64,000 bases of DNA from the NCBI GenBank assembly GCA_029548865.1, contig JAKPMO010000015.1, positions 10,482 to 74,481 of the forward strand, read 5' to 3'. Source of the stretch: Caldisericota bacterium. GTDB lineage: Bacteria; Caldisericota; Caldisericia; JAAYUI01. The position numbers were made by a program, and so were the translations under genes. The notes beneath the pieces were generated by a model that made no database searches, was not told the origin of the DNA, and was given only the letters and a program-made list of their open reading frames with translations. Shown here one piece after another: positions 13,508 through 52,864 of this stretch; position 1 is the stretch's first letter; every line of letters starts with the position of its first letter.

Positions 13508-13530
13508 GACCCTATTCTGTTCTTTTGGAC

Positions 13531-13560: not shown

Positions 13561-13572
13561 TCATTTATCAAA

Positions 13573-14892: not shown

Positions 14893-14910
14893 TTTGTCTC
14901 CAATAATATA

Positions 14911-16807: not shown

Positions 16808-16825
16808 TTTCAAAGAGACTTGGTG

Positions 16826-16858
16826 GAAAAAGCGGGGTTTTGCCCCGCTTTTTTTATT
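16826..16858 (+). terminator. Rho-independent terminator
   Basis: AAAGCGGGGTTTTGCCCCGCTTTTTTTATTTT. Confidence 0.65.
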
Positions 16859-16875
16859 TTTGGAGGGAGGGTAAG

Positions 16876-16930
16876 ATCTTATTGTTATAAAATCTGGATT
16901 GTTGTATATTGCCCTTTGAGGTGGCGCGAC
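16876..16930 (+). promoter_or_regulatory. Copy 1 of a duplicated ~52-bp promoter/leader element (TTGTTA-N17-TATATT followed by GAGGTGG)
   Basis: Near-identical to 18262-18316. Contains sigma70-like -35/-10 boxes with a 17-nt spacer and a Shine-Dalgarno-like GAGGTGG. Confidence 0.55.
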
Positions 16931-16938
16931 AATAACTA

Positions 16939-18156: not shown

Positions 18157-18261
18157 AACCTAAAGGGTTTTCTACCAACCTTGGAAGACAACAAAAAACT
18201 GTTTATTTCTACACAAATCGTGGGGTGTACAAATACCAGGAAAAATGATTCAAAATCAATC

Positions 18262-18316
18262 TCTTGCTTATTGTTATAAAACCTGGATTGTTGTATATTG
18301 CCTTTTGAGGTGGCGC
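18262..18316 (+). promoter_or_regulatory. Copy 2 of the duplicated promoter/leader element, immediately upstream of the ATG at 18318
   Basis: CTTATTGTTATAAAACCTGGATTGTTGTATATTGCCTTTTGAGGTGGCGCG-ATG. Differs from copy 1 at about 2 positions. Confidence 0.55.
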
Positions 18317-18317
18317 G

Positions 18318-26784: not shown

Positions 26785-26909
26785 CTTGAAACTCCTTTCG
26801 ATGCATTCATGGCTGATTTGCTTCAAATACACGAAATCTTGGGGTCAAGTTCAAAATTGGGGAGGGTGCTGATGTCTTGATAAAAAATAGAATCTTTTTT
26901 TGAAGACAA

Positions 26910-26968: not shown

Positions 26969-28285
26969 CTATTCCGCAGCAGCACCAAGTTTAACGTTAA
27001 AGGTCATCTCTCTTCCATCCCTGCTGACCCTGATCTTGACGACATCTCCCACTTGATGGTTCCTTACCTCAACAAGGAGTCCTTCAAAATCTGTAACTTC
27101 CTTTCCATCTATTGCGGTGATGATATCACCCCTCTGTATTCCTGCTTCCTGGGCACCACCCTTTTCAACCACTGCTATGTATGCACCTGACGCATACTTC
27201 AAACCAAGCTGCGAAGAGAGGTCCTGTGTGAGTGTTGCGCCCCTGACACCAAGCACTGGCCAGCCCACCTTGCCGAACTTGATGAGGTCTTTGGCAACTC
27301 TTGACGCAACATTTGAGGAGACTGCAAAACCTAGATTTTGTGCACCCTCAATAATGACTGTATTGATTCCGACCACCTTGCCATCCAGTGTCACAAGTGG
27401 CCCACCGGAATTGCCTGGGTTGATGGCGGCATCCGTCTGAACAACTCCGACCAGCATACGGCTTTTATCTACCTGTATGTTTCTGGCAAGGGCCGAGATA
27501 ACGCCCGTTGTGACTGTATTTTCAAACTTGTATGGGTTGCCTATTGCAACGACCGGCTGACCAACTTTCAATTTTGAGGAGTCCCCGAGCTCGGCCATTG
27601 GAAGATTTTTCTCTTTCACCTTGAGGATAGCAAGATCGGAAAGTGAATCTGTGGCGACAATCTGGGCCTCAAAATTCCTCTTGTCTATGAGGTGGACAAC
27701 GATCTTTTGGCCATTCTCCACAACATGGTTGTTGGTGAGGATAAAACCTTGTTCATCAGTCCAGGTATTTTTTATTATGACACCAGAACCTGCCGCCTGC
27801 TCGACCCTTACTTGAGGCTGCTGTCTGGCAAATGGGTTGACGTTATTGTCGTTGTTGAAGAACTGCTCAAAAGGATTGTCAAACTGCAATATGGAGTTTG
27901 TAATTTCCTTGTCAACAGTTATCGAGACAACAGCAGGAGATACTTTATTTACCACATCAACAACACCGTCGTAGAACATCTGCTGATTTATCGGGGTTTC
28001 CGGCACCGGCTGCTGGATCACCACGGTACTATTTTTGTTGTCTGCAAGCCTGTATCCCAGGAACCCTGAGAGGCCACCAAAAAGCACCGAGAATACAAGA
28101 GCAAGGGCAATAATTCCGCCCCATCTCGGGGTGTTCTGCCTGTCTGCCTGTCTGCCACCATTTATATTCATCTGCGAATACTGCGGTTTCTCCTCATGAG
28201 CTGGTTCCTTGTACTCAGTATCAATAGTTTCCGGCTCTTCAGTTTTATCTATCGGGGTATAGTTATACTCTTCCTCAAATAACAT
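26969..28285 (-). CDS. htrA: HtrA/DegP-family serine protease, membrane-anchored, with C-terminal PDZ domain
   Basis: AAGGAGG-N8-ATG. N-terminal TM GGIIALALVFSVLFGGLSGFLGY. Catalytic motif GNSGGPLV. PDZ-like C-terminus. Confidence 0.85.
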   Translation of the reverse strand: MLFEEEYNYTPIDKTEEPETIDTEYKEPAHEEKPQYSQMNINGGRQADRQNTPRWGGIIALALVFSVLFGGLSGFLGYRLADNKNSTVVIQQPVPETPINQQMFYDGVVDVVNKVSPAVVSITVDKEITNSILQFDNPFEQFFNNDNNVNPFARQQPQVRVEQAAGSGVIIKNTWTDEQGFILTNNHVVENGQKIVVHLIDKRNFEAQIVATDSLSDLAILKVKEKNLPMAELGDSSKLKVGQPVVAIGNPYKFENTVTTGVISALARNIQVDKSRMLVGVVQTDAAINPGNSGGPLVTLDGKVVGINTVIIEGAQNLGFAVSSNVASRVAKDLIKFGKVGWPVLGVRGATLTQDLSSQLGLKYASGAYIAVVEKGGAQEAGIQRGDIITAIDGKEVTDFEGLLVEVRNHQVGDVVKIRVSRDGREMTFNVKLGAAAE

Positions 28286-28298: not shown

Positions 28299-29408
28299 TT
28301 ATAGCTTTCTTATGACAAGCCTCTTGTCCAGTATCAGGTTTCCAAAACCGTCTATCTTTATGGCTTGTTCAGGGTAAAAGTTGACCTGGTAAGGCTTTCC
28401 GGCATCACCAGTTGGCTTGACAAGGGCCACCATCTTTCCTTCAATCATTTTTTGCGCCTGCACCTCTGAAATCCCCATCTCTACAAGGGAATTTGTTTTT
28501 TCCGGCCAGAGGGGCATCAAAAGCAACAGTGTGAAGCAGAGCACTGTAGCAAGAGATTTGTGCGCCACAAGTTTTTCTTTCTTTGGTTCGAGCAAAGCCA
28601 TGGTTCTCTCCTCGAGTCCGCCAGAAGAAAGATTTGCGGCCACTCTTACCGGTGAACAGAGCTTTGCAACACCTATAAGTGCTTCCGCAAGCGGGAAGGG
28701 TGAACCAATCGCCTTTATTGCAAGGCGGTCAGTCTCCTTTTCAAGCTCCAGCGAATAGCTCTTCCAGGCAAACTTTCCTGGAAGATACGAACAAAGTGCA
28801 ACATTGAGCGTCCAGAGCCACATGTTGATTATGTCTCTGCGCCTTATGTGGGCCATCTCATGGGCAACAACTGCATCAAGTTGCTCTTTTGAAAGCCCCT
28901 TTATCAAATTTTCTGAAATGTAAACAGAGTTTAGGGTCGAGAAGGCCTCGGAACCTGAATTGCCAAGAAAAAAAGTTGTGCTCCTGGTGTCTTGCCCGCC
29001 AAATCCACGAGAAAGCGATTCCCTGAAAGATTTTGGTGCGACACGGTACCCTCTGGTCCTTGAGGACAGCAGAAACAGCCCAAACCCAAGGCGGAAAGTA
29101 ACAAAACCGATTACGATCCACGGCGCAGCGATGAGAAGATAATGCCAGAAGGTCGGCTCCAGCGTGACATTGGCTCCGTAAATAATACCCTCTGTGGAAA
29201 AGAGCTTTGTTGGTGTGAGGGTGAGTTTTACTGTCTCCGGAACAAGACTGGAGAGCATTATGAAGCCGGCAGAAAACCCAAAGAGGGACGCCAGTGACAC
29301 AAAAATTGACCAGCCCAGCCCCTTCGGGGAGAGCTTCCTGCCAAGCAGGAACCACAAGAACGGCCACGCCACAACCAGATAAAGGGCAAAAACAAGACTA
29401 TTTTCCAT
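28299..29408 (-). CDS. BlaR1/MecR1-like M56 family membrane metalloprotease-transducer lacking a penicillin-binding sensor domain
   Basis: Multi-TM N-terminus. HEXXH zinc motif VVAHEMAHI. 369 aa with only a ~70-aa extracytoplasmic C-terminal tail. Confidence 0.8.
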   Translation of the reverse strand: MENSLVFALYLVVAWPFLWFLLGRKLSPKGLGWSIFVSLASLFGFSAGFIMLSSLVPETVKLTLTPTKLFSTEGIIYGANVTLEPTFWHYLLIAAPWIVIGFVTFRLGFGLFLLSSRTRGYRVAPKSFRESLSRGFGGQDTRSTTFFLGNSGSEAFSTLNSVYISENLIKGLSKEQLDAVVAHEMAHIRRRDIINMWLWTLNVALCSYLPGKFAWKSYSLELEKETDRLAIKAIGSPFPLAEALIGVAKLCSPVRVAANLSSGGLEERTMALLEPKKEKLVAHKSLATVLCFTLLLLMPLWPEKTNSLVEMGISEVQAQKMIEGKMVALVKPTGDAGKPYQVNFYPEQAIKIDGFGNLILDKRLVIRKL

Positions 29409-29814
29409 TTTGTTTCCTCTCCTTTATCATACGCTCAAGCATGTCCAATTTGTTCGAGTCCGAATTCTCAAGCATTTCCAGAAAATTTGCCATGACAGGC
29501 TCGGTAAGGCTGCCAATGACCGAGTTAAGTACCTTGCACGTGCTTTTAACGTCCATCTCTTCTTGGGTGACTGACGGCATGTAAACATAGCTCTTGCCGC
29601 ATTTTTCCCTTTTGAGGACACCCTTTTTGGAGAGCCTGTCGCAGGTTGTCATGATGGTCGTGTAGGCATGATCGGTCGAAAGGTGGTCTACTATTTCCCT
29701 TACAGTTGCCTTTCCGATGGCGCAGCAGGCCTTGTAGACCTCGTACTCCAGGGAGCCGAGAACCAGCCCTGCACCGACCCTGTTTGACGTTACCCTTATA
29801 ACTTTGTCTTCCAT
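29398..29814 (-). CDS. BlaI/MecI/CopY-family winged-helix transcriptional repressor
   Basis: LGSLEYEVYKACCAIGKATVREIVDHL matches the penicillinase-repressor N-terminal DNA-binding domain. Overlaps the M56 gene by 11 nt. Confidence 0.75.
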   Translation of the reverse strand: MEDKVIRVTSNRVGAGLVLGSLEYEVYKACCAIGKATVREIVDHLSTDHAYTTIMTTCDRLSKKGVLKREKCGKSYVYMPSVTQEEMDVKSTCKVLNSVIGSLTEPVMANFLEMLENSDSNKLDMLERMIKERKQNGK

Positions 29815-29953: not shown

Positions 29954-31288
29954 TTACCTGATATAGTAATCCTCTCCAATCCTCGGTATTTCATTTTGGG
30001 GTTGCACCTTGAAGAGCTTGCCGTCCAGGTATTCCATCAATACTCTTTCGACTTTTGTTTTTGCTTCATTATGGATACCCGCAAAAATATAGGCTTTGTC
30101 TGGATGAGAAGCTCTTATGAAACAGCCATCAGAAAACGTATTTTGATCAAACTCTTTTATTTTTTTCACTTCACCACTGTTCATGTCCAGCCTGAGCAAA
30201 TAATTCCTGTATCTTGGTGCAACTGCCTCCCCAAAACCTGGTTTCATGTAACCGGCAAAGATAAAAACAGAATCTTTCGAAGTTGAAACTATTGCATATT
30301 CACAGGTTTTATATTCACTATCTTCAAAATTTTTCAACTTTTCCTGGAATATCCATATTTTTTTACCACTCATGTCAGCAATAGCATATGTATTGCGTTC
30401 ACAATTTACATTTGTGATGTTTGGTATATCACTACTTTCCGGGTATGTTTTGTCATAGGGCCCAACATAGCCAACAATGCCGGTGGTTTGATCGGCAAAC
30501 GTGACCCATGGTCTAATGGGTTTCACTCTATCCGTTGTGGTAATGCTTAGATCGTCCAGGGAAAGTCTGACTCCACGGGCATGGGCATAAGGCACCTGTG
30601 CATGAGTAAGGTCCATTGTCACAACCCTTGGGTCGCAATATTTTCCACTGGTGCCAAAGAATTTGTTTTCTTTTGTCTGTTCAACAAGCAACAATTCTTT
30701 TTCCCCCCAATAAACAGGAAAGTAAAGAACACCACTTTCTTTTACTAGCTCCCCAAGATCATCATGGTAAAAAGATTTTCTATATCTGGCACCAAGTTTT
30801 TTTGATGAACCGTTTTTCAGGTTATACAAAATGGTATATTTGGCCGATATTTCTTTTAGCAATTTACCGTCTTCTTTGTGTGGTATTTCAAAGTAAAACC
30901 CGGTCCCTGCAGAAAGGAGGGCCCATTGTTTGTCAGGTGAAAGCCCCTCCAGGCTACATGTGTGCGGACCCTCCAGATAGAAATAAAATGCACTGCCAAA
31001 ATTTGTCGCCACAGTGTATTTTAGCAGGCCCTCCATGTAAGGGTCCCTGATTCTTGGCAACTTTACCTTAAATGCCGACGTGAAATCACTCCAGTCAAGC
31101 TGGGCGGAATAGATGATAATCTCTCTTTTTCTCATCTGGGTTTCCCAGTCATCGCCATAGCCAAGGGTATAAAAACGTTTCTCTCCCTGTGGCGTAATCT
31201 GCCCTATCCCCTCGTTTGAGGCCCCGCAACCGACAAGGAACACCAAAATCAGACCTATTGCATAAAAAACTCTGGCCATTTTCTTCAT
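29954..31288 (-). CDS. Lipoprotein, Tyr-rich, possible beta-propeller (unknown function)
   Basis: MKKMARVFYAIGLILVFLVGCGAS lipobox. 444 aa, moderately low GC. Confidence 0.55.
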   Translation of the reverse strand: MKKMARVFYAIGLILVFLVGCGASNEGIGQITPQGEKRFYTLGYGDDWETQMRKREIIIYSAQLDWSDFTSAFKVKLPRIRDPYMEGLLKYTVATNFGSAFYFYLEGPHTCSLEGLSPDKQWALLSAGTGFYFEIPHKEDGKLLKEISAKYTILYNLKNGSSKKLGARYRKSFYHDDLGELVKESGVLYFPVYWGEKELLLVEQTKENKFFGTSGKYCDPRVVTMDLTHAQVPYAHARGVRLSLDDLSITTTDRVKPIRPWVTFADQTTGIVGYVGPYDKTYPESSDIPNITNVNCERNTYAIADMSGKKIWIFQEKLKNFEDSEYKTCEYAIVSTSKDSVFIFAGYMKPGFGEAVAPRYRNYLLRLDMNSGEVKKIKEFDQNTFSDGCFIRASHPDKAYIFAGIHNEAKTKVERVLMEYLDGKLFKVQPQNEIPRIGEDYYIR

Positions 31289-31432: not shown

Positions 31433-32623
31433 TCACACAATCAGCATATCTCTGGCAATCGCAGAGGCCGCATTCGGCATGCCTGCCTCAAGCGATAGCG
31501 CCTGAATGGCAACCATCGTGGCCTGGGTGTTGGCGTCCTGCAAATCAGGGCGTTCTGCACCAGAATGGTTGAATGCTCCAAACATCTTTGGGTCTGGTTG
31601 CCTGTTGGCAAGCTCCCCGCAAAGCCTTTTTGTTGCCTTGTCTATTTTCAGGCAGTAGCCCTCCGGAAGCATCCCCAGGGCCTCGATGAGCCTTCCGGCC
31701 CTGATAAAATGGGCACACACATCGGCCCTTTCGTAGTTCTCGCCCTCGCCCACGAGCATCGGGAAACCACCATCCTGGAGCTGGCAGTCTGCAACAAAAC
31801 GCCATGTCTTCAGTGCAGCTTCAAGCATCCTCTGCCTGTCCAGCATCACCGAACCAACAAGGAGTGCGTCAACAGCATGCATTGTTGGAAGCAGATGGAC
31901 CGATCTTCCAGTTGAGGTTATTGCCCCTTCCTGCTTTTCCTCTGCGCTCTGACACGCCCAGTCAAGCAACCTTATTGCATGCGTTCTGGCCCTTTCAGAC
32001 CTTATTGCCTGCGCGTAGTTCATGAGCCCTATGGCAATTTTTGCTAGGTACGGCTGGATGTCGGCGCGCCAGTTCGATGTGTCCTGTATGACTGTTGCAC
32101 TGTCAACATCAAGGAGAGGATAAGGAACGCCGTTTGGCCCCATCATGCGCTGGGTTATAAAATCAACTGCCTTTGAGGCCACAGAAAGGCAAAAAGAGTT
32201 GTCAGTTTCATAATGCAGATGCACAAAAGCATTCAGGATCATTGCCACATCAAGCGTTTTTATTTGCCTGATCTGGGAGTCATTTTGGGGATTGATGCCC
32301 ACCATAAACCCACCCTCATCAGCCACCCATGCCTTGTCAAGCAACCAAAAGGCCGCCTGTTCTGTCGGGTTTTGCCTCGGCCAGCCCGGCAACATCCTGT
32401 CCAGAAAAAGCATGCAGGTGATTGCATTTCCAGTGGTGGTAGAAAACATGATGGAATGGCAGTGCTCAAGTGTTGAATACCAGCCGTAAAATCCACCAGC
32501 ATGGGGCCCTTCCTGCTCCTGGATGCCTGATTGAGAGAGCCAGGCGGACGCAGAAAGAAGGGCCTTTATTGCATCACCATTTGCGCGCCCGCTTGTCCAC
32601 GAGAGCGCATTGGCAAGGGTCAT
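31433..32623 (-). CDS. Cytoplasmic alpha/alpha-toroid-type protein (prenyltransferase/squalene-oxidase-repeat or terpene-cyclase-like; low confidence)
   Basis: No signal peptide. Repeated Q..DGGF / GGFYGW-like motifs (ADCQLQDGGFPM, HAGGFYGWYS). Start ATG at 32623 overlaps the stop of the upstream PQQ gene (ATGA). Confidence 0.4.
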   Translation of the reverse strand: MTLANALSWTSGRANGDAIKALLSASAWLSQSGIQEQEGPHAGGFYGWYSTLEHCHSIMFSTTTGNAITCMLFLDRMLPGWPRQNPTEQAAFWLLDKAWVADEGGFMVGINPQNDSQIRQIKTLDVAMILNAFVHLHYETDNSFCLSVASKAVDFITQRMMGPNGVPYPLLDVDSATVIQDTSNWRADIQPYLAKIAIGLMNYAQAIRSERARTHAIRLLDWACQSAEEKQEGAITSTGRSVHLLPTMHAVDALLVGSVMLDRQRMLEAALKTWRFVADCQLQDGGFPMLVGEGENYERADVCAHFIRAGRLIEALGMLPEGYCLKIDKATKRLCGELANRQPDPKMFGAFNHSGAERPDLQDANTQATMVAIQALSLEAGMPNAASAIARDMLIV

Positions 32624-34752
32624 GGGTTGAAGACCATCCTTACTGTTTTTGTCTCGGCAATCCACACTACATCGGCGCCAAAGGCCTCGGCTATTGCCCT
32701 GAACGGAACCATTGTTCTGCCGTCTTTTATCTCTGGCGGGGAGGGGATGGCTTTTATGAGATCATTGACGTCCATTTCAGGACGACCTACCCAGAGCTTG
32801 ACCCTATTGTCAAACCTGTTTATCTGTATCTCTTTCTTGTCGGCAATCCATTTGACGTCGGCACCAAAGGTCTCGGAGATAAACCTTATCGGAACCATTG
32901 TTCTACCTTTGCTTGTTACATACGGGGCAACGTCCATGTCAACAGGCCTGCCATTTACAAAAGCCGTGTTGTCGCCAATGACCATTGAGATCTCTATCCT
33001 GGGCTCGGTTTCGACCTTTACCATGACGGAAACCTGCTGGCAAACATCATTTTTCGTGGCAATGACAATCCTTCCCTGGGCCTCGTTGCCTGCCGGTATT
33101 CTACTGCCATTGAGTGTGATCTTTAGAAGGAACTTGCGATTTATCGAGGTGAAAGAGACTGGTTCTACATCAATCCACCTGTCTTCACCCATCACTATGC
33201 CGGAGACTTCCTCATCGGTATCAAAAGAAAGGGTCAGCGTCTTTGAGACTTCCTCACCCCTTTTGATGAACCCAAAATTGAGTTCGGATGGAGAAACATT
33301 CAGGCATGGTGGTGCTGGTGAAACAATGCGCCACCTGATTATCATGGTGAACTCGCCGCCATTTGAAGATATCTTGAGCAACGCCTGGTGGTTGCCATAA
33401 TCAAGCCCACCGGGATCAAGCGTTACCCTGATTTTTTGCTCAGATCCATTGCTTATATCAAAAAATTCGGTCGCACTGAAAGAAAGATGTTTCTCATCAG
33501 TAACCATTTTTCCTTCGAGTTTCGTCTGGAACTGGTCTTTTCTGGCATTTCTGATGATGATGTCCCTGAAAGGTGTTGTTCCATGGGTCACAATACCAAA
33601 ATCAATTTCTTGCGGCTCAACTTCAAGAATTGGCCCTGGCTGGAAGACCTGGACTGTTCCACCCCATGTGCCGACATAAACTGCCTCGCAGTAGATTACA
33701 GGCGACGCCTCAATAATGTATCCAAGATTGCCCTTCCAGGCGAGTTGGCCCGTTTTCCAGTACAGACAGTAGAGATTCTGGTCATCCGACCCAAAGAAAA
33801 CGTATTTTCCGCCGACAGCCGGGGAGGAGTAGTTCCAGTTTTCCGTCCTGAAATTCCAGACTTCCTCGCCGGTATCCTGGTAGAGGCAACGGACCATCTT
33901 GTCGTATCCAGTTGGAATTATGAGTTTGTCTTCAACAAGTGCTGGCGTTGCCCAGACGTGGGCACCAACATCTATCTTCCAGATCTGCCTGCCATCATCG
34001 GACAGACAATAGAACTGACCGCCATCTGTGCCAAAAAATATCTTTTCGTTTCTGACAGAACAGGCCGCAAAAACCTCAGAAGGGGTCTCAAATTCCCAGG
34101 TCAGCCTGCCATTTTCGGCATTGAGGCAATAAAGCTTCTTTGAATATGAACCGATGAGGATAGTCTTATTGTGCTCATTGTAGGTCGGCGAGGCATCAAC
34201 AAAAGCACCCGTATGGAATGCCCAGACTTTCTGGCCAGAAAGGACGTCAAGGCAATAAACCTTCATGTCCCTTGATGCAAAATAGACCTTCCCGTTAACA
34301 ACAAGGGGTGACGATCTTATGATATCGCCAGTTTTGAATTTCCAGACTTCATTTCCAGTTTCAAGGTTCAGGCAATAGAGGTAGCCGTCATCCGAGCCAC
34401 AGATTGTTACTTCTCCAAAAATTGTTGGTGACGAGCGGACCTTGTTTCCAGTCAGATAGTTCCACCTTATCCTGAATGAGTGAGTGTCGTAGCAATATAT
34501 CCTCATGTCATCAGAACCAACCACGCTGTACCTGTCGGTCATTGCAATTGAGCTGTGGATGGCGGCCGTGGCTTTGTAGGCCTCTCCAACAAGAAGCGGC
34601 GGTGCCGCCTGGTTCGTTGTCAGACAAGACCTCGAAGGATCATGGTTAAACATTACCCAATCATCGCACTTTCCTTCTTCGGCCATGGCAAAAACAGGCA
34701 TCTGGAGAGCTAGTATAATAGCCAACATTGCTGTAATCAGTCTGGATTTCAT
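32620..34752 (-). CDS. Secreted PQQ/BamB-like beta-propeller protein with Ig-like (DUF1573/ASH-type) domains and two C-terminal CAO-N wall-association domains
   Basis: Signal peptide MKSRLITAMLAIILALQMPVFAMA. Many blades of the form YCL..E.G...W. C-terminus VAPYVTSKGRTMVPIRFISETFGADVKW...GRTMVPFRAIAEAFGADVVW. Confidence 0.7.
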   Translation of the reverse strand: MKSRLITAMLAIILALQMPVFAMAEEGKCDDWVMFNHDPSRSCLTTNQAAPPLLVGEAYKATAAIHSSIAMTDRYSVVGSDDMRIYCYDTHSFRIRWNYLTGNKVRSSPTIFGEVTICGSDDGYLYCLNLETGNEVWKFKTGDIIRSSPLVVNGKVYFASRDMKVYCLDVLSGQKVWAFHTGAFVDASPTYNEHNKTILIGSYSKKLYCLNAENGRLTWEFETPSEVFAACSVRNEKIFFGTDGGQFYCLSDDGRQIWKIDVGAHVWATPALVEDKLIIPTGYDKMVRCLYQDTGEEVWNFRTENWNYSSPAVGGKYVFFGSDDQNLYCLYWKTGQLAWKGNLGYIIEASPVIYCEAVYVGTWGGTVQVFQPGPILEVEPQEIDFGIVTHGTTPFRDIIIRNARKDQFQTKLEGKMVTDEKHLSFSATEFFDISNGSEQKIRVTLDPGGLDYGNHQALLKISSNGGEFTMIIRWRIVSPAPPCLNVSPSELNFGFIKRGEEVSKTLTLSFDTDEEVSGIVMGEDRWIDVEPVSFTSINRKFLLKITLNGSRIPAGNEAQGRIVIATKNDVCQQVSVMVKVETEPRIEISMVIGDNTAFVNGRPVDMDVAPYVTSKGRTMVPIRFISETFGADVKWIADKKEIQINRFDNRVKLWVGRPEMDVNDLIKAIPSPPEIKDGRTMVPFRAIAEAFGADVVWIAETKTVRMVFNP

Positions 34753-34955
34753 GAGAGAGATATTAGCACAATAAATTAAATCAATCAATTGAACGCAGAC
34801 TTGGACAAGGTCAATTTATTGAAAAATCTACATTAAAATTACAGTGTTTTCTCCAATCAAAATAAAGAAATCCCATATTTATGCACAAATTGTTATAAAC
34901 AAAAATACGCCGAAGGTTTCCCCCTCGACGTATCTGAAGCTTTGTGTGTTCCCGG

Positions 34956-37900
34956 TTATTTTGCACCAAAACAGTAGAGTTTGTTGTCAAAAGAGCCTGC
35001 CAGTATATGGCCGTTTGAAATGGCAGGTGATGAAACGGCTCCTTCTGTTTTGAAAGACCATATCTTCTCGCCAGTGTTGAAATCAACGCAGTAGAAATAA
35101 TAATCCTGGCTGCCAAACCAGACCTTGTCACCACAAACTGCCGGGCTGGTTACCCACCCTTCCGCCCTGAACGTCCAAAGCTTTTTGCCAGTTTCAGAAT
35201 CCAGGCAATAAAGGAAGGAATCAGTCGCACCCACAAACACCCTCCCGTTCCAGATCGCAGGTGAAGAGTAGTGGAGGACACCGCCTGCCTCAAACATCCA
35301 CACCTGGGAGCCAGTCTGGGCGTCCAGGCAATAAAGCTTCTTGTCATCGGAACCAATGTAGACCTTTCCATTCCAGATGGCAGGCGTTGAGGTTATCATA
35401 TAGCCAGTCTTAAAGTCCCATATTTTCTTGCCAGTTAGCGCGTCCAGGCAATAAAGGCTCTTATCCTCACATCCAAAATATATCTTGCCTTCCCAGAGCG
35501 CAGGCGATGAATCAACCTGGTCGGGTGCCTCAAACTTCCAGAGCAGTTTCCCTGTGGTGGCATCAAGGCAGTACATAAAATGGTCCTTTGACCCAAAATA
35601 TACCCTGTTTTCCCACACCACTGGGGAGGAGAATGTTGGGCCCTGGGACATAAATGACCATATCTTGTTACCTGTTTTTGCGTCCAGGCAGTAGAGGTTT
35701 CTGTCATAGGAACAGGCATAGACCCTTCCGGAATCGACTGCCGGAGAGAACACCCTGCCTGTAGCGGTGAAGTCCCATATCTTTGACCCACTCGCCAGAT
35801 CGAGGCAATAGAGATGATTGTCGTCCGAACCGACAAAAACCCTGCCATCGGAGATGGTTGGCGAAGAATAGATGTCATCACCTGTTTCAAAGCTCCAGAT
35901 AAGTTCCGTCTTTGCCGGGTCAGGCCCGCAACCATCAGGAACAACGCCATTTCTCTGGAGGTTGCCCCTGTACTGGCTCCACTCGCAAGTCACTTCTTCC
36001 GGTTTTGCGATCTTGAGCACTTTCACTTTTCCGGTGTCAGAAAGTTCAAGGTAAGTAGCGGTTACGGTGCATTCCCCATCCTTGATGGCAGTAAAGAGGC
36101 CGTTCTGGTCAACTGACCCGATTTCAGCATCAGAGCATTCCCAGCTTATCTGGATATCTTTCATCTCCTGGTCGAACTGGTCAAAAACCGTGGCCGTAAA
36201 CTGCTGGGTCTCGCCTGGTTTCAGGACTGATTCCTTCGGCTGGACAACAAGTCTGGCCGGATATGGTTTTTCAGGCTCGACAGTGTCATCATCAACAAAG
36301 CAGTAGAGGAAGCCATCGGTGTTTGTGAAGAGTATCTTTCCTCCACAAACTGATGGATACACAAAATCCTTCCCGCCTTTTACATTGTAGGCAAATTTTT
36401 CCTCGCCTGTAGAAGCGTCAAGCAACTTGATCAATCCACCGGTATCGCCAAGAACCACCCTATTCCCGTAGCAGGCCACGGAATAAAACGATGAGCCTTC
36501 CATTGGCACATCATAAAGCACCTTGCCATCCACAAGCGAGAGGCAGAACATCCTCTTGTTTGTGGAAATGGCGAAAATCCTGCCGTCCCTTATCGCCAGA
36601 GGGCCAAAAACTGCCTTGTCTATTTCACTCGTCCAGATGGCGTCACCGGAACGGGGATCAACACACCTTACAATGCCGTCCCATGTGGAGAAATAGATCC
36701 TGCCATCAAAATATGTTGTTTCACCGTCAAAATCGTTCTTGCTGTCGATTGTCCACAAAATATCGCCTGTGTTTGCATCAAAGCAGTAGTAGGTGTCATC
36801 ACTGGACCCGATAAATACTTTGCCATCGGCAACAGTCGGTGATGACTCGAAATCTATCTTGTTCGGGTTCTCCCATACTAGCTTGCCAGTCAGGACGTCA
36901 AGGCAATACAGGGCGTTTTTACCGGAATTGTTTTCGTTGTCGTCACGGACCTTGCCGCAGCCAAAATAAAGCTTTCCCTGATAAATAGTTGGCGATGTCC
37001 TTATCTCTCCGCCAGCCTCAAAAGACCAGAGCTCTTTGCCAGTTTTTGCGTCGAGGCAATAGAGTTTCTTGTCAAATGACGGCGCAAACAGTTTTCCCTG
37101 CCAGTAAACCGGCGTGTAGGCAAGCGCCCCCGATTTGAACTCCCAGATCTTTGCGCCCGTCTCAAGATCCATGCAATGGAACTTGCCGTCCTGGGCGCCC
37201 GCAAAAACCATCCCATCCACAGAAATTGCTTGGGTGGTGAGAGGCGATTTTGCATTGTATTTCCACAATATTTTCAGCTTGTCGGTTTTTGGACCGCAAT
37301 CGGCCTCTGTGGATGAAGTCCTGCTCGGGTCACCGCCAAAACATGGCCAGTCGCAACCCTGCTTTTCAAGGTTCAGCCCCTCGTCATAGACATAGACTTT
37401 TGCCCTTGCAGAGAGCTGGCCGGAAGTGGCAACAATATCAGTCAGCCCTGGCGATTTGGCACCAAAGAGACCGCCATAATCAAGCGTTCCGGTTTTGGGG
37501 TCCGTCAAAGACCAGGTTATTTTCTGGTCTTTCATGACCTCATCATAATTGTTGTAGACTGTGGCAGTAAAAAGTATGCTCTGGCCAGGTTTCAGCACGG
37601 CAAATTTTGGCTTTATGGTCATTTTAACTGGTTTTTCAACACGCGCTTCAAGGCAATAAACGTTGCTGTCGTTTGACCCAAAATAGATCTTTTTATTGCA
37701 GATTACAGGTGTTGACCACACCTCATCCTTTGTTTCAAAAGAAGACAGCTCCTTGCCAGTTTTTGCATCAAGGCAGTAGAGCTTATTGTCATAGGAGCCA
37801 AAATATATCTTCCCTGCACAATATACAGGTGATGAGTTGTTGATTTTTCCGTCTGTTTTGTATTTCCAGGAAAGCTTTTTTGATGATCCGTCAACGCAGT

Positions 37901-38795
37901 ATAGGTTGCCATCATCACTGCCGAAATAGATTTTACCCTCGGCAATTGTTGGTGTTGTAAGTATCGGCCCTCCAGCAAGGTAGGTCCAGAGAGTTTTGCC
38001 AGTCTTCAAATCGAGGCAGTATAGCTTTTTGTCCCAGTTCCCAGCGTATATCTTGCCGGAAGCAACTGATATTGATGCTGGGGCATCAAATTCACTGCCT
38101 ACCCTTGCAGATTTCCAGAGCTGTTTGCCATTTGTCGCATCAAAACAATACATGCAATTGTCGTTTGATCCTATGACAATTTTCCCGCCAGCAATTGCTG
38201 GGGAAGCCTCAAAACCCACCTGGTTTTTTACCTTCCAGATGGCTTTTCCCGTTTTGGCATCCAGGCAATAAATGTAATTATCACCCTTGTTTGTCTTGTC
38301 ATTTGTTTTGCCGCAGGCTGCATAGAGCTTGCCCAAATAAACCAGGGGATTGGAGATGCTTGCGGATGACATTGTAAAAACCCAGAGCTGCTTCCCAGTT
38401 TTTGCATCAAGGCAATAGACCCTTTTGTCGGTGCAGGAAGCATAAACCCTGTCTGAATCATAACATATCCCGTTAAGGACCCCGCCTATCTTTGCTGACC
38501 AGGAGAGAGTCCCTTTCTCTGCATCTAGGCAATACATCTTGTTGTCCCACGAAGCCACATAAACCTTTCCAGAGACAACGAGTGGTGCACAGGTAACAGA
38601 ACCTCCTGTCATATATGACCAGCGCTTTACAAGGTCATTGTTTTCTGGCGCACACTCAGAAGGGAAAACCCCGTTATTGCCAAGGTCGAACTTGAACCTT
38701 GTGCAATCACAGCTGGCAGCAACGCCAGGGCCAGAAACAAAAACAGACGACATGACAATCAAAAGCGCAAGCGCCCTTGCAGTTATTTTTTTCAT
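34956..38795 (-). CDS. Giant secreted protein (1279 aa): three PQQ/BamB-like beta-propellers separated by Big_2-type Ig domains
   Basis: GGAG-N5-ATG. Signal peptide MKKITARALALLIVMSSVFVSGPGVAAS. Dozens of LYCLDAKTGK..W blades. Big_2-like PGQSILFTATVYNNYDEVMKDQKITWSL and PGETQQFTATVFDQFDQEMKDIQISW. Confidence 0.75.
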   Translation of the reverse strand: MKKITARALALLIVMSSVFVSGPGVAASCDCTRFKFDLGNNGVFPSECAPENNDLVKRWSYMTGGSVTCAPLVVSGKVYVASWDNKMYCLDAEKGTLSWSAKIGGVLNGICYDSDRVYASCTDKRVYCLDAKTGKQLWVFTMSSASISNPLVYLGKLYAACGKTNDKTNKGDNYIYCLDAKTGKAIWKVKNQVGFEASPAIAGGKIVIGSNDNCMYCFDATNGKQLWKSARVGSEFDAPASISVASGKIYAGNWDKKLYCLDLKTGKTLWTYLAGGPILTTPTIAEGKIYFGSDDGNLYCVDGSSKKLSWKYKTDGKINNSSPVYCAGKIYFGSYDNKLYCLDAKTGKELSSFETKDEVWSTPVICNKKIYFGSNDSNVYCLEARVEKPVKMTIKPKFAVLKPGQSILFTATVYNNYDEVMKDQKITWSLTDPKTGTLDYGGLFGAKSPGLTDIVATSGQLSARAKVYVYDEGLNLEKQGCDWPCFGGDPSRTSSTEADCGPKTDKLKILWKYNAKSPLTTQAISVDGMVFAGAQDGKFHCMDLETGAKIWEFKSGALAYTPVYWQGKLFAPSFDKKLYCLDAKTGKELWSFEAGGEIRTSPTIYQGKLYFGCGKVRDDNENNSGKNALYCLDVLTGKLVWENPNKIDFESSPTVADGKVFIGSSDDTYYCFDANTGDILWTIDSKNDFDGETTYFDGRIYFSTWDGIVRCVDPRSGDAIWTSEIDKAVFGPLAIRDGRIFAISTNKRMFCLSLVDGKVLYDVPMEGSSFYSVACYGNRVVLGDTGGLIKLLDASTGEEKFAYNVKGGKDFVYPSVCGGKILFTNTDGFLYCFVDDDTVEPEKPYPARLVVQPKESVLKPGETQQFTATVFDQFDQEMKDIQISWECSDAEIGSVDQNGLFTAIKDGECTVTATYLELSDTGKVKVLKIAKPEEVTCEWSQYRGNLQRNGVVPDGCGPDPAKTELIWSFETGDDIYSSPTISDGRVFVGSDDNHLYCLDLASGSKIWDFTATGRVFSPAVDSGRVYACSYDRNLYCLDAKTGNKIWSFMSQGPTFSSPVVWENRVYFGSKDHFMYCLDATTGKLLWKFEAPDQVDSSPALWEGKIYFGCEDKSLYCLDALTGKKIWDFKTGYMITSTPAIWNGKVYIGSDDKKLYCLDAQTGSQVWMFEAGGVLHYSSPAIWNGRVFVGATDSFLYCLDSETGKKLWTFRAEGWVTSPAVCGDKVWFGSQDYYFYCVDFNTGEKIWSFKTEGAVSSPAISNGHILAGSFDNKLYCFGAK

Positions 38796-38842
38796 TTATA
38801 CTCCACTATACGCTAGAGGGATGTATTTTGCCTGTATGTTTT

Positions 38843-39031
38843 TTAACAGCCAGGATCCACAAAATGCTTTTTAGATGATTCCATGGCAACATCAAGGTCA
38901 TCTAAGGCTTGCGACATCTCTTCGGCCAGATTTTTTGGCAAGACATTTAGATCGATTGCCTTTTTTATGGCCTCAGCGGCATAGTAAGCTGCATCAAAAA
39001 GCCTTTTGTGTGCTATTTCAAGTTTTTCCAT
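38843..39031 (-). CDS. Small (62 aa) helical protein of unknown function between two giant PQQ genes
   Basis: Strong AAAAGGAGG-N4-ATG ribosome-binding site. Acidic amphipathic sequence. Confidence 0.5.
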   Translation of the reverse strand: MEKLEIAHKRLFDAAYYAAEAIKKAIDLNVLPKNLAEEMSQALDDLDVAMESSKKHFVDPGC

Positions 39032-39077
39032 AATGCCTCCTTTTGGTAATTATAACCAAAAAGGGGCTGGCTTGATA

Positions 39078-42000
39078 TCACTTAATCATAATTGTTACTG
39101 GGAGCACGACAACTCTGTCATTCCACGCAATTTTTACAAGCCCATTGTTCGGGCCCTTCTGGGCTTTTTGCGGATCAATTGAAATATTAAAATTCACCTT
39201 TTCGCCACTCTTCATCTCAAAGGTTGCAGGTTTCACTGAGAAAAAGTCACCTTCTTTTGTGATGGAAACGGTGACCTTCTTTGCAATCCTGTTGGTCAGC
39301 GTTATTGGCATTATGGGCTCTCTGCCCTCTTCCACAAGCCCGAAATCAGCATTATCAGGTTCTACAGAAACTTCCCTGGTTGTTTCAGAGAAGCAGAACA
39401 ATGTCCCATCCTCTGAGATGATATAAAGCCTTCCCATGGAAATTATCGGGGAGGAAATGACCTCCTCCGGAAGTACCGCTGACCATATCTTCTCAGGGGA
39501 ACCGGCATCAATGCAAATTGCTTTTTTGTCCAGAGTGCCAAGGTAGACCTTCCCACCACAAACCACGGGTGAAGTCATAAAACCACCACTGGCTCGGTAC
39601 GACCACAGGTTTTTGCCAGTTTTCCCCTCAAGACATATGAGGAGAGAATCGGATGTTGCACAATAAATATTCCCTCCAAAAAATGAAGGCGAGTTCACAA
39701 CGCCAGTTTTGTATGTCCACATGTTGTAACCAGTCGCAACGTTCAAACAGTAAAACATCCCATTATGGCAACCAACATAGACCTTATCATCCTTGATGCA
39801 GGGAGTTGATTTTACCGGAGCTTTGCAATCATATGTCCAATATTTGGCGCCAGAAATGGCGTCAAGACAGTAAATCTTGCCATCCATAGAGCCAAAAATA
39901 ACCCTGTCCAGCTTTGAAAGCTTGCCTGATGTTTTTGTAAAGGAAACGGCCGGAGAAGAGCTGACAGCACCAGCAGTCTTATAGCTCCAAATCCTCTCGC
40001 CCGTCTTGGCATCGAGACAGTACATGTAGCCATCATTGCAACCAATATATGCCCTTGGTTTGTTGTCAAAATCACCCGTTATCACCGGAGATGACTGGAA
40101 ACCAGATGGCCCTTCAAATTTCCACAGCAATGAGCCATCTTCCCAATCGACACAATACACGTTTGAATCATTGGAGCCAAAATAAATCCTTTTTTCAAAT
40201 ATCGCCGGTGAGGAATAGATCGGCCCTCCAGTTTCGAAATTCCATATCTCCTTGCCATTCTCTGCATCATAGCAATAGAGGTTGCCATCCATGCAACCAA
40301 CAAAAAGCCTGCCGTCAAAGGTTGCTGGAGAAGACTCCACCATGTCCCTCATCTTTACAGAGAATATTTTTACAAGCTCTGTAGCTGCAGGGGCACATCC
40401 GTCAAATTCAAAACCTGTTCTGGCCGGGTTCCTCTTGAAACAAATCCACTCACAACCCGAAGCTTCTTCATCCTGGTCTTCTCCTGAGATGTAGACCCTG
40501 ACATCAATTTGGTCTTCATAATCTCCAGATTTCAGTTTTATCTGTCCCCAATAGTTGCCTTGGTCTGTAATGCCATCTGCCGTGAGGCCAATTTTTACAA
40601 TGTATTTGCTCTTTGGGGCAATGACAAGTGTTTTGTTTGATAGCACAAACCACGTTGAGGCCGTGGAGAGTTCCACAACCATCTCTTCCTCGGAGGTGTT
40701 GCCAACCTCAAGCATGATGGGGTCTGGGGAACCATAGAGGTCATAAGATTGGATCGAGCCAAAATCAACTTTCTTTGGCTCAATTGTTAAAGTTTCCTTG
40801 GTATCAGAAAGGCAATAAACCTGCTTATCATAAGAACCAAAGATGATATTGCCTTTATAAATGATAGCTTCAGATTTTATCGAATCCTGACATTTGAAGG
40901 ACCAGAGTTTTTCGCCTGTAAATGAATCTAGGCAATAGATGGATTTGTCTTGCGAAGGAACAATGACCTTTTTCCCATAGATTGAGGGTGAAGCAGTGAC
41001 ATAATTCCCAGTGACAAACTCCCATTTCTTCTTGCCATCTGACTGGGCAAGGCAGGTCACGGAGCCATCATTGGAGCCAAAATAAACTTGGCCTTCAGAG
41101 ACCGACGGAGAGGATTGTATCTGGCTCTTTGCTTCATAAATCCATACTCTTTTGCCAGTTGTTACCTCTATGCAATAAACCATCTTTTCTCTTGTTGCAA
41201 AAAAGAGCTTGTTGGCTTCATATGCTGCGGTTGCAATCTCTCCTTTGGCTGTGAATGTCCAGAGAATGCTGCCTGATTCCGTCGCAAGGCAGTAGAGTTT
41301 CCCGTCGCTTCCACCAAAGCATATCCTGTTCATGCAAATGGTCCCAGAAGTTACAATCGGCGAAAGTTCGTCTGATTTCCACAGGAGCTTGCCTGTATTG
41401 ACAGCAAGGCAATAAACATACTCATCTTTCGAACCAAAAAACACCCTGTCATCAATTATCATGGGATTGGAGAGGATGTCTCCTTCAGTCTGAAACTCCC
41501 ACAATTTTTTTCCAGACTCGGTGTCCATGCAATAAAGCATCTCCTGGGCACCAATTATTGTATAATCCATTGTTGCAGACGGTGATGAAGTAATGTATTT
41601 GTCCAGTTCAGTGTTCCACACTACAGAGCCATTTTCGACCAGTAAACAGGAAATCATCTTTCCCCATGTTGGGCCAGCTATTATCCAATCACCCACAACA
41701 CAAGGAGAATTCCCAAAAGGCTGACTAAAACCTGTTGACCAGATTTTTGCCACAGAGTCAGTCAAGGGGCCGCACTCTGCGCCTGTAGATCCAGTCCTTT
41801 GCGGATTTGCCTTGCTGTTCCCCCAGCCGCAGCCTTTGAATTCGGCATTCAACTCATAAAGAACATAAGCTTTCGCAAGCACTATACTCTGGCTTGAACC
41901 CCAGACAAGCTTTATCGATGCCCTTTGCATTCCAACATCTGTGATTTTCTCCCAGTCAATGGAGGCGGTGATTGTTTTTTCTTCACCAGGAATTAGCGAA

Positions 42001-43256
42001 ATAGCGGTATTATCAAGCTTGAGCCATGATTTATTGATGGTTAGTATAACCGTCTGGTCTTTCTCTGTTTTATTTTTTATGATCAGTGAAACTGATTTTT
42101 GCTCACCTTTGGACATCTCGCCAAAGTTTATGTTTTCTGGTTTTATTTCAATTTCCGGGCTGATATCACCCAAACAGTAGAGGTTACCATCCAGAGAACC
42201 TGCAAGTACTCTGTCTGTGGCAATGCTTGCTTGGCACATGGAACCTTTTGCCTGGAAGACTGAGAGTTTTTCACCAGTCTCTGAGTCAAGGCAGCAGATT
42301 GTACTGCCCACACCGACATAAACCTTGGAACTAACAAGAGTGCATGTTGTGACTTGCATTTTAGGCTCGGTATAACGCCAGATCTCTTCCATTGTATTTT
42401 TGTCCAGGCAAAAGATATTGTCGCCAGAACCAACGTAAAGGTAGTCGCCCATGAGCGCCGGAGAGGTCCTGACGGTGGCGCCGGTTTGAAACTGTGCAAG
42501 GAGCTGGCCAGTTTCAGATTCTAGGCAATAAACGTTGCCATCATCACTGCCAAAATATATCTTGTTGTTTTGGGCGGCAACTGAAGAATAGATGCTGCCA
42601 TCAGTCTTGAATGACCAGAACAGCTTGCCGGTCTCGGAATCTACGGCATAAAGGGAATGGTCTTTTGACCCAAAATAAACCTTGTTTAAAAAAACCAGTG
42701 GACTTGAAATAATGCCATCCTTTGTCTCAAACTTCCATTTGAGCTCGCCAAGGCTTGCACCGACACAATAAAGATACCTGCCAAGGCAGCCAAAATAACA
42801 ATTTGTCCCATATACTGTCGGGCTTGAAATAATACCGCCCCTTGCCTTGAAACTCCAGAGTTTGTCTCCATTTGATGCGTTCAAACAGTACATATTGTGA
42901 TCTTGCGAGCCAAAATAAACCATCTTGCCGGTGGCATAAGGCTGGGATCTCATCTCCGACTCGGTTTCAAATTTCCACTTTTCCTCACCTGTTTCAGGAT
43001 CAAGGCAATACAGCCTGTGATCTGTTGATGGAATGTATATACTATCGCCATCATAGGAGGCAGAACAAAGGACTGGCCCTTTTGTCTCGAACTTCCAGAA
43101 GAGACCCAGATTGTTTCCCTGTGGGCCGCAATCAGAATAGAAGTTATGCCTGCTGTTGCCACCATAGCACGGCCAGCTGCATCCTTCACCTGAAGCTTTC
43201 CAGTAAAAACCCAGCGCAATGACAAGAGCACAACCCAGAGCAATCAGCTTCTTCAC
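39078..43256 (-). CDS. Giant secreted protein (~1392 aa): multiple PQQ/BamB-like beta-propellers plus DUF1573/ASH-like Ig domains
   Basis: GGGAGG-N5-GTG start gives VKKLIALGCALVIALGFYWKASG, a signal peptide. Propeller blade repeats run throughout. PapD-like domains (NINFGEMSKGEQKSVSLIIKN, VDFGSIQSYDL..., DNADFGLVEEGREPIMPITLTN). Confidence 0.7.
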   Translation of the reverse strand: MKKLIALGCALVIALGFYWKASGEGCSWPCYGGNSRHNFYSDCGPQGNNLGLFWKFETKGPVLCSASYDGDSIYIPSTDHRLYCLDPETGEEKWKFETESEMRSQPYATGKMVYFGSQDHNMYCLNASNGDKLWSFKARGGIISSPTVYGTNCYFGCLGRYLYCVGASLGELKWKFETKDGIISSPLVFLNKVYFGSKDHSLYAVDSETGKLFWSFKTDGSIYSSVAAQNNKIYFGSDDGNVYCLESETGQLLAQFQTGATVRTSPALMGDYLYVGSGDNIFCLDKNTMEEIWRYTEPKMQVTTCTLVSSKVYVGVGSTICCLDSETGEKLSVFQAKGSMCQASIATDRVLAGSLDGNLYCLGDISPEIEIKPENINFGEMSKGEQKSVSLIIKNKTEKDQTVILTINKSWLKLDNTAISLIPGEEKTITASIDWEKITDVGMQRASIKLVWGSSQSIVLAKAYVLYELNAEFKGCGWGNSKANPQRTGSTGAECGPLTDSVAKIWSTGFSQPFGNSPCVVGDWIIAGPTWGKMISCLLVENGSVVWNTELDKYITSSPSATMDYTIIGAQEMLYCMDTESGKKLWEFQTEGDILSNPMIIDDRVFFGSKDEYVYCLAVNTGKLLWKSDELSPIVTSGTICMNRICFGGSDGKLYCLATESGSILWTFTAKGEIATAAYEANKLFFATREKMVYCIEVTTGKRVWIYEAKSQIQSSPSVSEGQVYFGSNDGSVTCLAQSDGKKKWEFVTGNYVTASPSIYGKKVIVPSQDKSIYCLDSFTGEKLWSFKCQDSIKSEAIIYKGNIIFGSYDKQVYCLSDTKETLTIEPKKVDFGSIQSYDLYGSPDPIMLEVGNTSEEEMVVELSTASTWFVLSNKTLVIAPKSKYIVKIGLTADGITDQGNYWGQIKLKSGDYEDQIDVRVYISGEDQDEEASGCEWICFKRNPARTGFEFDGCAPAATELVKIFSVKMRDMVESSPATFDGRLFVGCMDGNLYCYDAENGKEIWNFETGGPIYSSPAIFEKRIYFGSNDSNVYCVDWEDGSLLWKFEGPSGFQSSPVITGDFDNKPRAYIGCNDGYMYCLDAKTGERIWSYKTAGAVSSSPAVSFTKTSGKLSKLDRVIFGSMDGKIYCLDAISGAKYWTYDCKAPVKSTPCIKDDKVYVGCHNGMFYCLNVATGYNMWTYKTGVVNSPSFFGGNIYCATSDSLLICLEGKTGKNLWSYRASGGFMTSPVVCGGKVYLGTLDKKAICIDAGSPEKIWSAVLPEEVISSPIISMGRLYIISEDGTLFCFSETTREVSVEPDNADFGLVEEGREPIMPITLTNRIAKKVTVSITKEGDFFSVKPATFEMKSGEKVNFNISIDPQKAQKGPNNGLVKIAWNDRVVVLPVTIMIK

Positions 43257-52772: not shown

Positions 52773-52864
52773 TGGCGGAGAGTGAGGGATTCGAACCCCC
52801 GAACCAGTTTGACCCAGTTACCCGCTCTCCAGGCGGGTGCTTTCGACCGCTCAGCCAACTCTCC
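52773..52864 (-). tRNA. tRNA-Ser (anticodon GGA), class II with long variable arm, CCA encoded
   Basis: Minus strand reads GGAGAGTTGGCTGAGCGGTCGAAAGCACCCGCCTGGAGAGCGGGTAACTGGGTCAAACTGGTTCGGGGGTTCGAATCCCTCACTCTCCGCCA. 7-bp acceptor stem, anticodon loop CTGGAGA, T-loop TTCGAAT. Confidence 0.85.

Follow-up and report, generated by a model that had tools for sequence, protein, structure and literature searches.

The window analysed here is a 64,000-nucleotide (nt) stretch of contig JAKPMO010000015.1 (assembly GCA_029548865.1) from a Caldisericota bacterium. Positions 31,433-43,256 of it carry five open reading frames (ORFs) on the minus strand. They encode two giant multi-propeller proteins (A and B), a protein of 62 amino acids (aa) between them, a third propeller protein (C) and a helical barrel protein (D). 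All five lie exactly where an earlier, sequence-only reading of this DNA had placed them (Table 1), and the ATGA in which the C stop codon overlaps the D start codon is present in the window sequence. A, B and C begin with one or two basic residues followed by a hydrophobic N-terminal stretch (Kyte-Doolittle maxima of 2.7-2.9 over 11 residues), and these signal peptides imply an extracytoplasmic location. D was described as signal-less and indeed lacks a hydrophobic N-terminal segment; by hydropathy, neither D nor the 62-aa protein has a signal-like segment or a membrane-span-like stretch anywhere.

The best reading of the span is that C and D form an ancestral Caldisericales operon, whereas A, the 62-aa ORF and B form a species-specific unit. 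A terminator-like hairpin begins 21 nt past the B stop codon, within the gap of ~200 nt between B and C. Within A-62aa-B there is no comparable terminator signal, and the gaps flanking the 62-aa ORF are 46 and 47 nt. The A-62aa-B genes lie beside C-D only in one species cluster, known from many metagenome assemblies at 91-100% nucleotide identity, so the five-gene order is confined to a single species. This species is abundant in biomass from anaerobic digesters. The most divergent same-species locus available, L096, is 91-95% identical to the window at the nucleotide level. Other Caldisericales loci carry a small Cu_amine_oxidN1 (CAO_N) protein gene (divergent), then a gene for an ArsR-type helix-turn-helix regulator, then C, then D; the ArsR-C-D order occurs in lineages L001/L006, L002, L003, L004/L005, L007, L008, L094, L095 and L102/L103. 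Neither an ArsR gene nor a small CAO_N gene was found in the window by tblastn with the L007 proteins. Given the terminator and this pattern of conservation, we read the span as two transcription-unit-like blocks, A-62aa-B and C-D. Gene E, a lipoprotein gene that follows D, may be attached to the second.

The conserved pair C-D and the barrel protein D

The C-D junction is strongly conserved. An identical ATGA was read base by base in 7/7 loci (the window, L001-L005 and L007), gene coordinates give the same 4-nt overlap in L094, L095, L099 and L102, and a Shine-Dalgarno-like motif (GGAtGG) precedes the junction by 11-18 nt in most loci read. Across lineages C is 55-73% identical and D 33-62%. 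The toroid gene is thus truly linked to C, as it shares this junction with C in every D-bearing Caldisericales locus at D identities down to 33%, and Caldisericales members of the D family were found nowhere but behind C. These observations support a functional association of C and D, and the overlap predicts that the two are translationally coupled. The sequence-only reading had found the coupling of a secreted to a cytoplasmic protein unexpected. The conservation of the overlap bears out the pairing; its oddity does not stand. Four-nt overlaps are common in the window (another lies at 11450-11453, and the BlaI and BlaR-like genes overlap by 11 nt), so the C-D overlap alone is not remarkable.

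The adjacency of C and D could be purely historical, with the three propeller proteins serving as independent adhesins or binding proteins. The frequency of short overlaps is compatible with this, as are three losses of D from loci that keep C (see below) and the abundance of PQQ-like propeller surface proteins, which are numerous in the genome and widespread in other taxa. We nevertheless consider the absence of any functional link rather unlikely, given an identical ATGA junction in at least ten loci and three clades of C, despite D identity of 33% and reshuffled flanks, and given that the Caldisericales D family occurs only behind C.

D passes the cut-off of no Pfam or NCBIfam family. Its sole Pfam match is Prenyltrans (PF00432) at 21.9 bits, under the cut-off of 26.5; Pfam gives no SQHop_cyclase (PF13243/9) match and NCBIfam nothing at all. 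In a structure search, the D model forms an (alpha/alpha)6 six-hairpin barrel similar to solved members of the glycosidase/epimerase superfamily, the nearest being cellobiose 2-epimerase (4z4j), N-acylglucosamine 2-epimerase, YihS, GH76, GH88/105 and GH8. A profile built from 40 D-family members matches GH76 and cellobiose 2-epimerase sequences with E-values of 1e-9 to 1e-8. From the profile and fold matches we conclude that D is a six-hairpin barrel of the carbohydrate type. The prenyltransferase or squalene-oxidase likeness proposed earlier was rejected, because the Pfam score is sub-threshold and the cyclases fall below sugar epimerases and glycosidases in the structure search. D-family fusion partners and recurrent neighbours that were scanned are sugar-nucleotide and glycan-assembly enzymes rather than isoprenoid enzymes, which also sets D apart from prenyltransferase beta-subunits and squalene-hopene cyclases.

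D also shows differences from the N-acylglucosamine 2-epimerase (AGE) superfamily and the six-hairpin glycosidases. Sequence identity to them is only 8-14%, and none of their Pfam models reaches its cut-off on D: GlcNAc_2-epim (PF07221) is not found on D at all, and one fused D relative reaches 21.3 bits where 23.4 are required. The genomic context of the D family is biosynthetic rather than catabolic. The catabolic enzymes at the top of D's structural matches (cellobiose 2-epimerase, mannose isomerase, sulfoquinovose isomerase and unsaturated glucuronyl hydrolases) could point to a degradative pairing, in which C would capture or cleave an extracellular glycan or other substrate and D would process the imported product. 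We hold this to be improbable. Genes for a transporter, a kinase or a sugar-responsive regulator are missing from the conserved module, D's own sequence family sits in biosynthetic clusters, the C propeller is at least as similar to BamB and YxaL, which are non-enzymatic scaffolds, and its scores against PQQ-dehydrogenase families are far under cut-off.

The D family extends well beyond Caldisericales. A word-indexed search with D retrieved six close relatives, of which the one with a named source is from Caldisericia (98% identity). An exhaustive profile search retrieved 554 representative clusters at E ≤0.001, 93 of them at ≤1e-30; most members are 370-400 aa long. Family matches span D residues 16-380 with E-values of 1e-58 to 1e-30 in proteins of 370-400 aa without a signal peptide. 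This full-length profile match makes D a true homologue of a WecB-associated six-hairpin family, with distant members only 22-29% identical to it. The members occur in Omnitrophota, DPANN and other archaea (among them Aenigmatarchaeota and Woesearchaeota), Planctomycetota, Chloroflexota and the Candidate Phyla Radiation (CPR).

The genomic context of the distant members is consistent. In 15/15 scanned fusion proteins the partners are cytoplasmic nucleotide-sugar enzymes, with Epimerase_2, Formyl_trans, Hexapep, NTP_transferase and methyltransferase domains, and the fused epimerase is of the WecB type (TIGR00236, 307 bits against a cut-off of 210). Among 70 distant loci, a WecB-like gene lies at most three genes away in 49 and is adjacent or fused in 37; the usual run is an SDR, a hexapeptide transferase, the D homologue, WecB and a GT4 glycosyltransferase. 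We therefore predict, from this context, that the family consists of cytoplasmic envelope-glycan or nucleotide-sugar enzymes. A WecB-like gene is found near D in none of the Caldisericales loci, as opposed to 49/70 of the distant ones; the Caldisericales copies lie outside glycan clusters, behind a secreted propeller gene.

The family has a conserved signature of 27 alignment positions, each conserved in at least 80% of 116 distant members and peculiar to the D family relative to the AGE superfamily and the six-hairpin glycosidases. It includes W28, S32, Q35, E62, Y66, D125, W185, K195, H245, Y249, E252, D301, Q305, R308 and Q374. In the D model, signature positions fall where the six inner helices begin (residues 61, 123, 196, 244, 300 and 363). 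These N-terminal helix ends are where six-hairpin enzymes have their active-site pocket.

The signature is intact (27/27) in ten distant members and in at least six Caldisericales lineages. In the window and L096, 17/27 positions are kept and 10/27 lost, through the substitutions Y60F, E62T, Y66N, F124L, S186R, H245L, Y249H, E252D, Q305H and W367Q; F371V is also present. L003 has lost eight positions, and L099 has lost 13 together with an 11-residue deletion. In L101, L104 and L105, C is present and D is absent, with no trace within 7-8 kb; neither six-frame searches with hidden Markov models nor tblastn found remnants there. L105 is the sister lineage of the window on the C tree, and its C gene ends at a strong terminator of its own. 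On a neighbour-joining tree of C, eroded and lost cases are spread over all three clades, so erosion is recurrent. D is dispensable, given three losses and three independent erosions, and its link to C is auxiliary rather than obligatory.

Two loci show other genes around the pair. L105 has a MerR/GyrI-like regulator (2651-3418, plus strand) inserted between the ArsR gene and C. L101 carries, in the position of D, a 906-aa P-loop (GSGKS) protein (10290-13010, plus strand), possibly a STAND/NACHT-like NTPase; as a disguised D it was rejected, given an hhalign probability of 0.3% and the P-loop. A block of BlaI, BlaR-like, HtrA and giant surface protein genes stands 3' of C in every case of eroded or lost D, and at no locus with an intact D within the sequence available.

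The window D does not behave like a decaying gene. Between the window and L096, the ratio of non-synonymous to synonymous substitution rates (dN/dS) is 0.010 for D, 0.017 for C, 0.050 for A, 0.067 for B and 0.15 for the 62-aa ORF; in D there are 73 synonymous and 3 non-synonymous differences. Because this ratio is very low, the lowest of the five, despite a remodelled pocket, the window D still does something. It probably keeps some role, with an altered substrate or through binding alone.

A stronger version holds that D is by now a non-catalytic partner of C, for example a cytoplasmic holdase or targeting factor for the C precursor that is supplied one-to-one by coupling. Three lineages with an independently eroded pocket signature nevertheless retain an open D frame and its 4-nt overlap with C, no gene of the span has a lower dN/dS, and D always lies directly 3' of C. 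We still judge such a pseudoenzyme role unlikely, since at least six lineages retain all 27 signature residues, so that catalysis matters there, and three lineages have C without D; moreover, we know of no six-hairpin secretion chaperone. A further proposal, that a widespread glycan enzyme linked to WecB (UDP-N-acetylmannosamine) was captured into the Caldisericales pair and repeatedly turned into a non-catalytic or re-specialised partner, is quite unlikely in our estimate. If it were true, the lineages would form a natural series from enzyme to pseudoenzyme tied to surface-protein biogenesis. In any case, the triple erosion of the signature under strong purifying selection offers a clean natural experiment on active-site remodelling.

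Protein C, the other propeller proteins and the 62-aa ORF

The coordinates of the genes and domains are collected in Table 1.

Table 1. Genes, signals and domains of the studied span and its 3' neighbours (window positions, or residues of the protein named).
Feature	Position	Strand	Description
Gene A	39078-43256	minus	1392 aa from GTG start
A propellers	residues ~25-362, 481-826, 941-1292		from motif spacing and Pfam
A Ig domains	residues ~363-480, 827-940, 1293-1392		ASH/PapD-like
62-aa ORF	38843-39031	minus	between A and B
Gene B	34956-38795	minus	1279 aa
B propellers	residues ~29-388, ~471-840, ~931-1279
B Big_2 domains	residues ~392-465, ~851-915
Terminator-like hairpin	34903-34935	minus	14-bp stem, 6 GC pairs, 5-nt loop, T-run
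Gene C	32620-34752	minus	710 aa
C signal peptide	residues 1-24		Sec-type
C propeller	residues ~47-372; 33637-34614	minus	one 8-bladed, BamB/YxaL-like
C Ig domain	residues 374-476		ASH/PapD-like
C second beta-sandwich	residues 482-597
C Cu_amine_oxidN1 (PF07833)	residues 598-705; 32638-32961	minus
C/D stop/start overlap	32620-32623	minus	ATGA, in context ccATGAcc
Gene D	31433-32623	minus	396 aa
Gene E	29954-31288	minus	444-aa lipoprotein, LVGC lipobox, 100 nt 3' of D
BlaI-like repressor	29398-29814	minus	3' block
BlaR-like M48/M56 protease	28299-29408	minus	11-nt overlap with BlaI
HtrA	26969-28285	minus	3' block
Giant surface protein	19960-26832	minus	2290 aa, Glucodextran_B-like domains, Cu_amine_oxidN1 end

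C combines a single propeller with a C-terminal domain assumed to be an anchor. An AlphaFold model made with eleven orthologues (mean predicted local distance difference test score, pLDDT, of 84) has a propeller of eight four-stranded blades, followed by two beta-sandwich domains and, at the C-terminus, an alpha/beta domain. The latter matches PF07833 at 166.6 bits (cut-off 24.2) over profile positions 1-107/108. Each of its ~55-aa half repeats alone scores 52-63 bits against the same half of the profile, so what had been taken for two CAO_N wall anchors are two half repeats of one 108-position Pfam domain. The one experimental report we found on a related Cu_amine_oxidN1-type module describes it as mediating homodimerisation (PMC10432803).

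The repeats of A, B and C are of the PQQ/BamB type, as the sequence-only reading had held, and not generic WD40 or Kelch repeats. Beta-prop_ACSF4 (PF13570) scores 693, 586 and 225 bits on A, B and C (cut-off 133) and PQQ_2 (PF13360) scores 395, 428 and 131 bits (cut-off 27.6), whereas all WD40-type models in the Pfam scan stay under cut-off on the three proteins. A YC[LV]D blade motif recurs every 38-51 residues (~40 aa) in groups of eight. By this spacing, A and B have three eight-bladed propellers each and C has one, which replaces the earlier estimate of two to four propellers in each.

The domains between the propellers differ. A consists of a signal peptide and three units, each an 8-bladed propeller followed by an ASH/PapD-like Ig domain. 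B has a signal peptide and three propellers alternating with two Big_2 domains. The spacers of A and C are ASH/PapD-like or HYDIN-type domains ('choice-of-anchor D' in NCBIfam). The earlier assignment of Ig domains therefore stands for Big_2 in B; its DUF1573-type part falls away, as DUF1573 is not among the domain matches. The domain scan found no anchor domain in A or B.

The seven propellers of A, B and C share only 26-39% pairwise identity and are therefore old paralogues; a recent tandem duplication of A and B was ruled out on the same ground. A fourth PQQ-like protein, ~30% identical to these propellers, is a 386-aa single-propeller lipoprotein at 12347-13507 (plus strand) with an LIGC lipobox. 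Nearly every blade of A and B has a cysteine in its YCLD motif, where related families mostly have alanine, and A contains 49 cysteines in total and B 46; the host is an anaerobe and both proteins are exported. We regard A and B as typical representatives of the organism's large repertoire of surface binding proteins. They belong to a very large PQQ-like surface class, to which they add little themselves. A search of the literature on PQQ-propeller S-layer proteins and on Caldisericum envelope proteins yielded nothing usable.

The expectation that the propeller proteins co-occur largely fails, since A and B stand next to C-D in one species only. It holds to the extent that some lineages have other propeller proteins near C-D: an 871-aa lipoprotein in L001/L007 and a 914-aa propeller-Big_2-CAO_N protein in L094. 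The architecture, position and orientation of such neighbours vary between lineages. L102 contains, at 10120-10859 (minus strand), the C-terminus of a 1281-aa protein; over 245 residues it shares 40% identity with the last propeller of B. Judged from this C-terminal part within the locus, the protein is a possible B orthologue ~6 kb from C-D.

The 62-aa ORF is strongly initiated, as had been claimed, with a AAAGGAGG Shine-Dalgarno sequence 4 nt 5' of its ATG. Gene calls for it exist in 148 collection blocks, and its homologues are 85-95% identical, the one with a named source being from Caldisericia. The protein has no family match in Pfam or NCBIfam and no homologue beyond the species; we predict a soluble, cytoplasmic orphan. 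Comparison with L096 gives 5.5 synonymous and 3.5 non-synonymous differences (rough binomial p 0.01-0.03), which weakly suggests that the ORF is coding. The intergenic DNA on its two sides varies even less (2 differences in 93 nt), and this conservation may reflect regulatory sequence. A regulatory RNA in the intergenic regions was considered and set aside, as Rfam finds only a tRNA in the window. A 61-aa gene at the edge of L003 was likewise rejected as a homologue, because it turned out to be the C-terminus of the ArsR regulator. Nothing ties the 62-aa ORF functionally to the propeller proteins.

A joint role of A, the 62-aa protein, B, C and D in one envelope machine or polymer-handling system is thus very improbable. 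The five genes do share a strand and short gaps, C could tether the anchor-less A and B through its anchor-type domain, and other propeller proteins lie near C-D in L001/L007, L094 and L102. These points are outweighed by the restriction of the order to one species cluster, the strong terminator between B and C, the ArsR gene 5' of C in other lineages, the varying architecture and orientation of the neighbouring propeller proteins, the age of the paralogous propellers (with more elsewhere in the genome), the lack of a homologue of the 62-aa ORF outside the species, and the dispensability of D.

Genes flanking the span

E has no match in Pfam or NCBIfam. L096 retains just its first 79 codons, and related loci lack the gene altogether; this reduction marks it as a strain-variable accessory gene. 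As a part of the C-D module it was rejected, for it has no homologue in related loci and is unrelated to a 298-aa gene 3' of D in L004. The 5' flank of A is strain-variable too, since L096 carries there (2897-5024, plus strand) genes for a D12-class DNA methyltransferase and a DUF6996/DUF6997/DUF7226 protein where the window has Fpg and ICMT-like genes.

Further 3', the BlaI, BlaR-like and HtrA genes resemble an envelope-stress module, and the block persists 3' of C in several lineages. Giant-protein orthologues ~2250-2275 aa long follow these three genes in L099, L101 and L104. A second giant protein of the window, 2349 aa long, is encoded at 56852-63901 (minus strand) and also has Glucodextran_B-like domains.

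Some Cu_amine_oxidN1 proteins carry redox-type domains. In L102, a gene directly 3' of D (4411-5373, plus strand) encodes a protein that joins Cu_amine_oxidN1 to a thioredoxin/AhpC-TSA/redoxin-type domain, and two Caldisericales-type proteins, P0172 and P0174, combine PQQ propellers, thioredoxin-like domains and Cu_amine_oxidN1. These architectures hint at extracytoplasmic redox functions among Cu_amine_oxidN1 surface proteins.

Elsewhere, the window contains a run of ORFs of ~230-450 aa without a Pfam match at E ≤1e-5 (3701-19661). A transglutaminase-like gene (11450-12319) overlaps a 292-aa gene by 4 nt, and the same pair occurs near C in L099. A tRNA gene at 52776-52864 (minus strand) is the sole Rfam match.

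A possible glycan link and comparison with known systems

We propose, with a probability of about 0.35, that D supplies or modifies an N-acetylmannosamine (ManNAc)-type sugar or glycan that serves C, its role having shifted in the window lineage. C would be exported and would display its propeller on a stalk of two Ig domains with Cu_amine_oxidN1 at the end. D would be translated through the ATGA overlap and remain in the cytoplasm, where it would act, or would once have acted, on a ManNAc-type sugar or glycan precursor. The glycan could either decorate C or be the envelope polymer to which the C-terminal domain of C binds, and co-translation would keep the amounts of C and D in step. In the window lineage, D would have moved to an altered or non-catalytic role. 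Any activity of D is an inference, as is its connection to C through a glycan.

Several points weigh against this proposal. No biochemical activity is reported for any D-family member, the family has no model in Pfam or NCBIfam, and a wall-anchor role of Cu_amine_oxidN1 is an assumption. The conserved Caldisericales module contains no WecB, glycosyltransferase or flippase gene, and the upstream regulator in the relatives is of the ArsR type, which is atypical for glycan operons. C persists at 54-68% identity in the D-less loci L101, L104 and L105. Other Cu_amine_oxidN1 proteins of the organism lack any coupling to D, so a C-specific need for D is not evident.

The polymer-handling idea of the sequence-only reading thus survives in part: a glycan link is plausible, as D is carbohydrate-related, and the joint five-gene machine is not upheld, in view of the species-restricted order, the terminator between B and C and the dispensability of D. 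If the link between C and D is functional, it would show how Caldisericota, a little-studied phylum, ties a surface protein to glycan chemistry in the cytoplasm. Such a link would also open a first way into the function of a six-hairpin family of ~550 clusters that is common in the glycan clusters of Omnitrophota, DPANN archaea, anammox Planctomycetes and CPR. The propeller proteins are of a well-known kind, whereas neither the C-D coupling nor the WecB-associated six-hairpin family has been described; we found no description of a WecB-linked six-hairpin enzyme in the literature.

A, B and C resemble BamB/YxaL-type propellers in their eight blades of ~40 residues, their YxLD...G...W motif and Pfam scores far over threshold. 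They differ in that A and B chain three propellers through Ig spacers and C carries two Ig domains and a Cu_amine_oxidN1 domain. None of the three is BamB proper, as they fail TIGR03300 (135 bits against 285) and PRK11138 (93 against 423), and C, unlike the BamB lipoprotein, bears a Sec-type signal peptide without a lipobox. They are also distant from PQQ-dependent dehydrogenases (58 bits against a cut-off of 480 for TIGR03075; 23 against 833 for TIGR03074).

For the C-D pair, the closest parallel lies in S-layer attachment. In Bacillus anthracis the csaB (pyruvyltransferase) gene stands beside S-layer genes, and attachment needs a modified ManNAc-containing wall polymer. By analogy, C-D may likewise be a case in which the gene for a cytoplasmic enzyme of the glycan-modifying type is kept by a surface-protein gene. 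The two systems differ in the fold of the enzyme, in the anchor, which is S-layer homology (SLH) in one and Cu_amine_oxidN1 in the other, and in the polymer link, which for C and D is only a proposed one.

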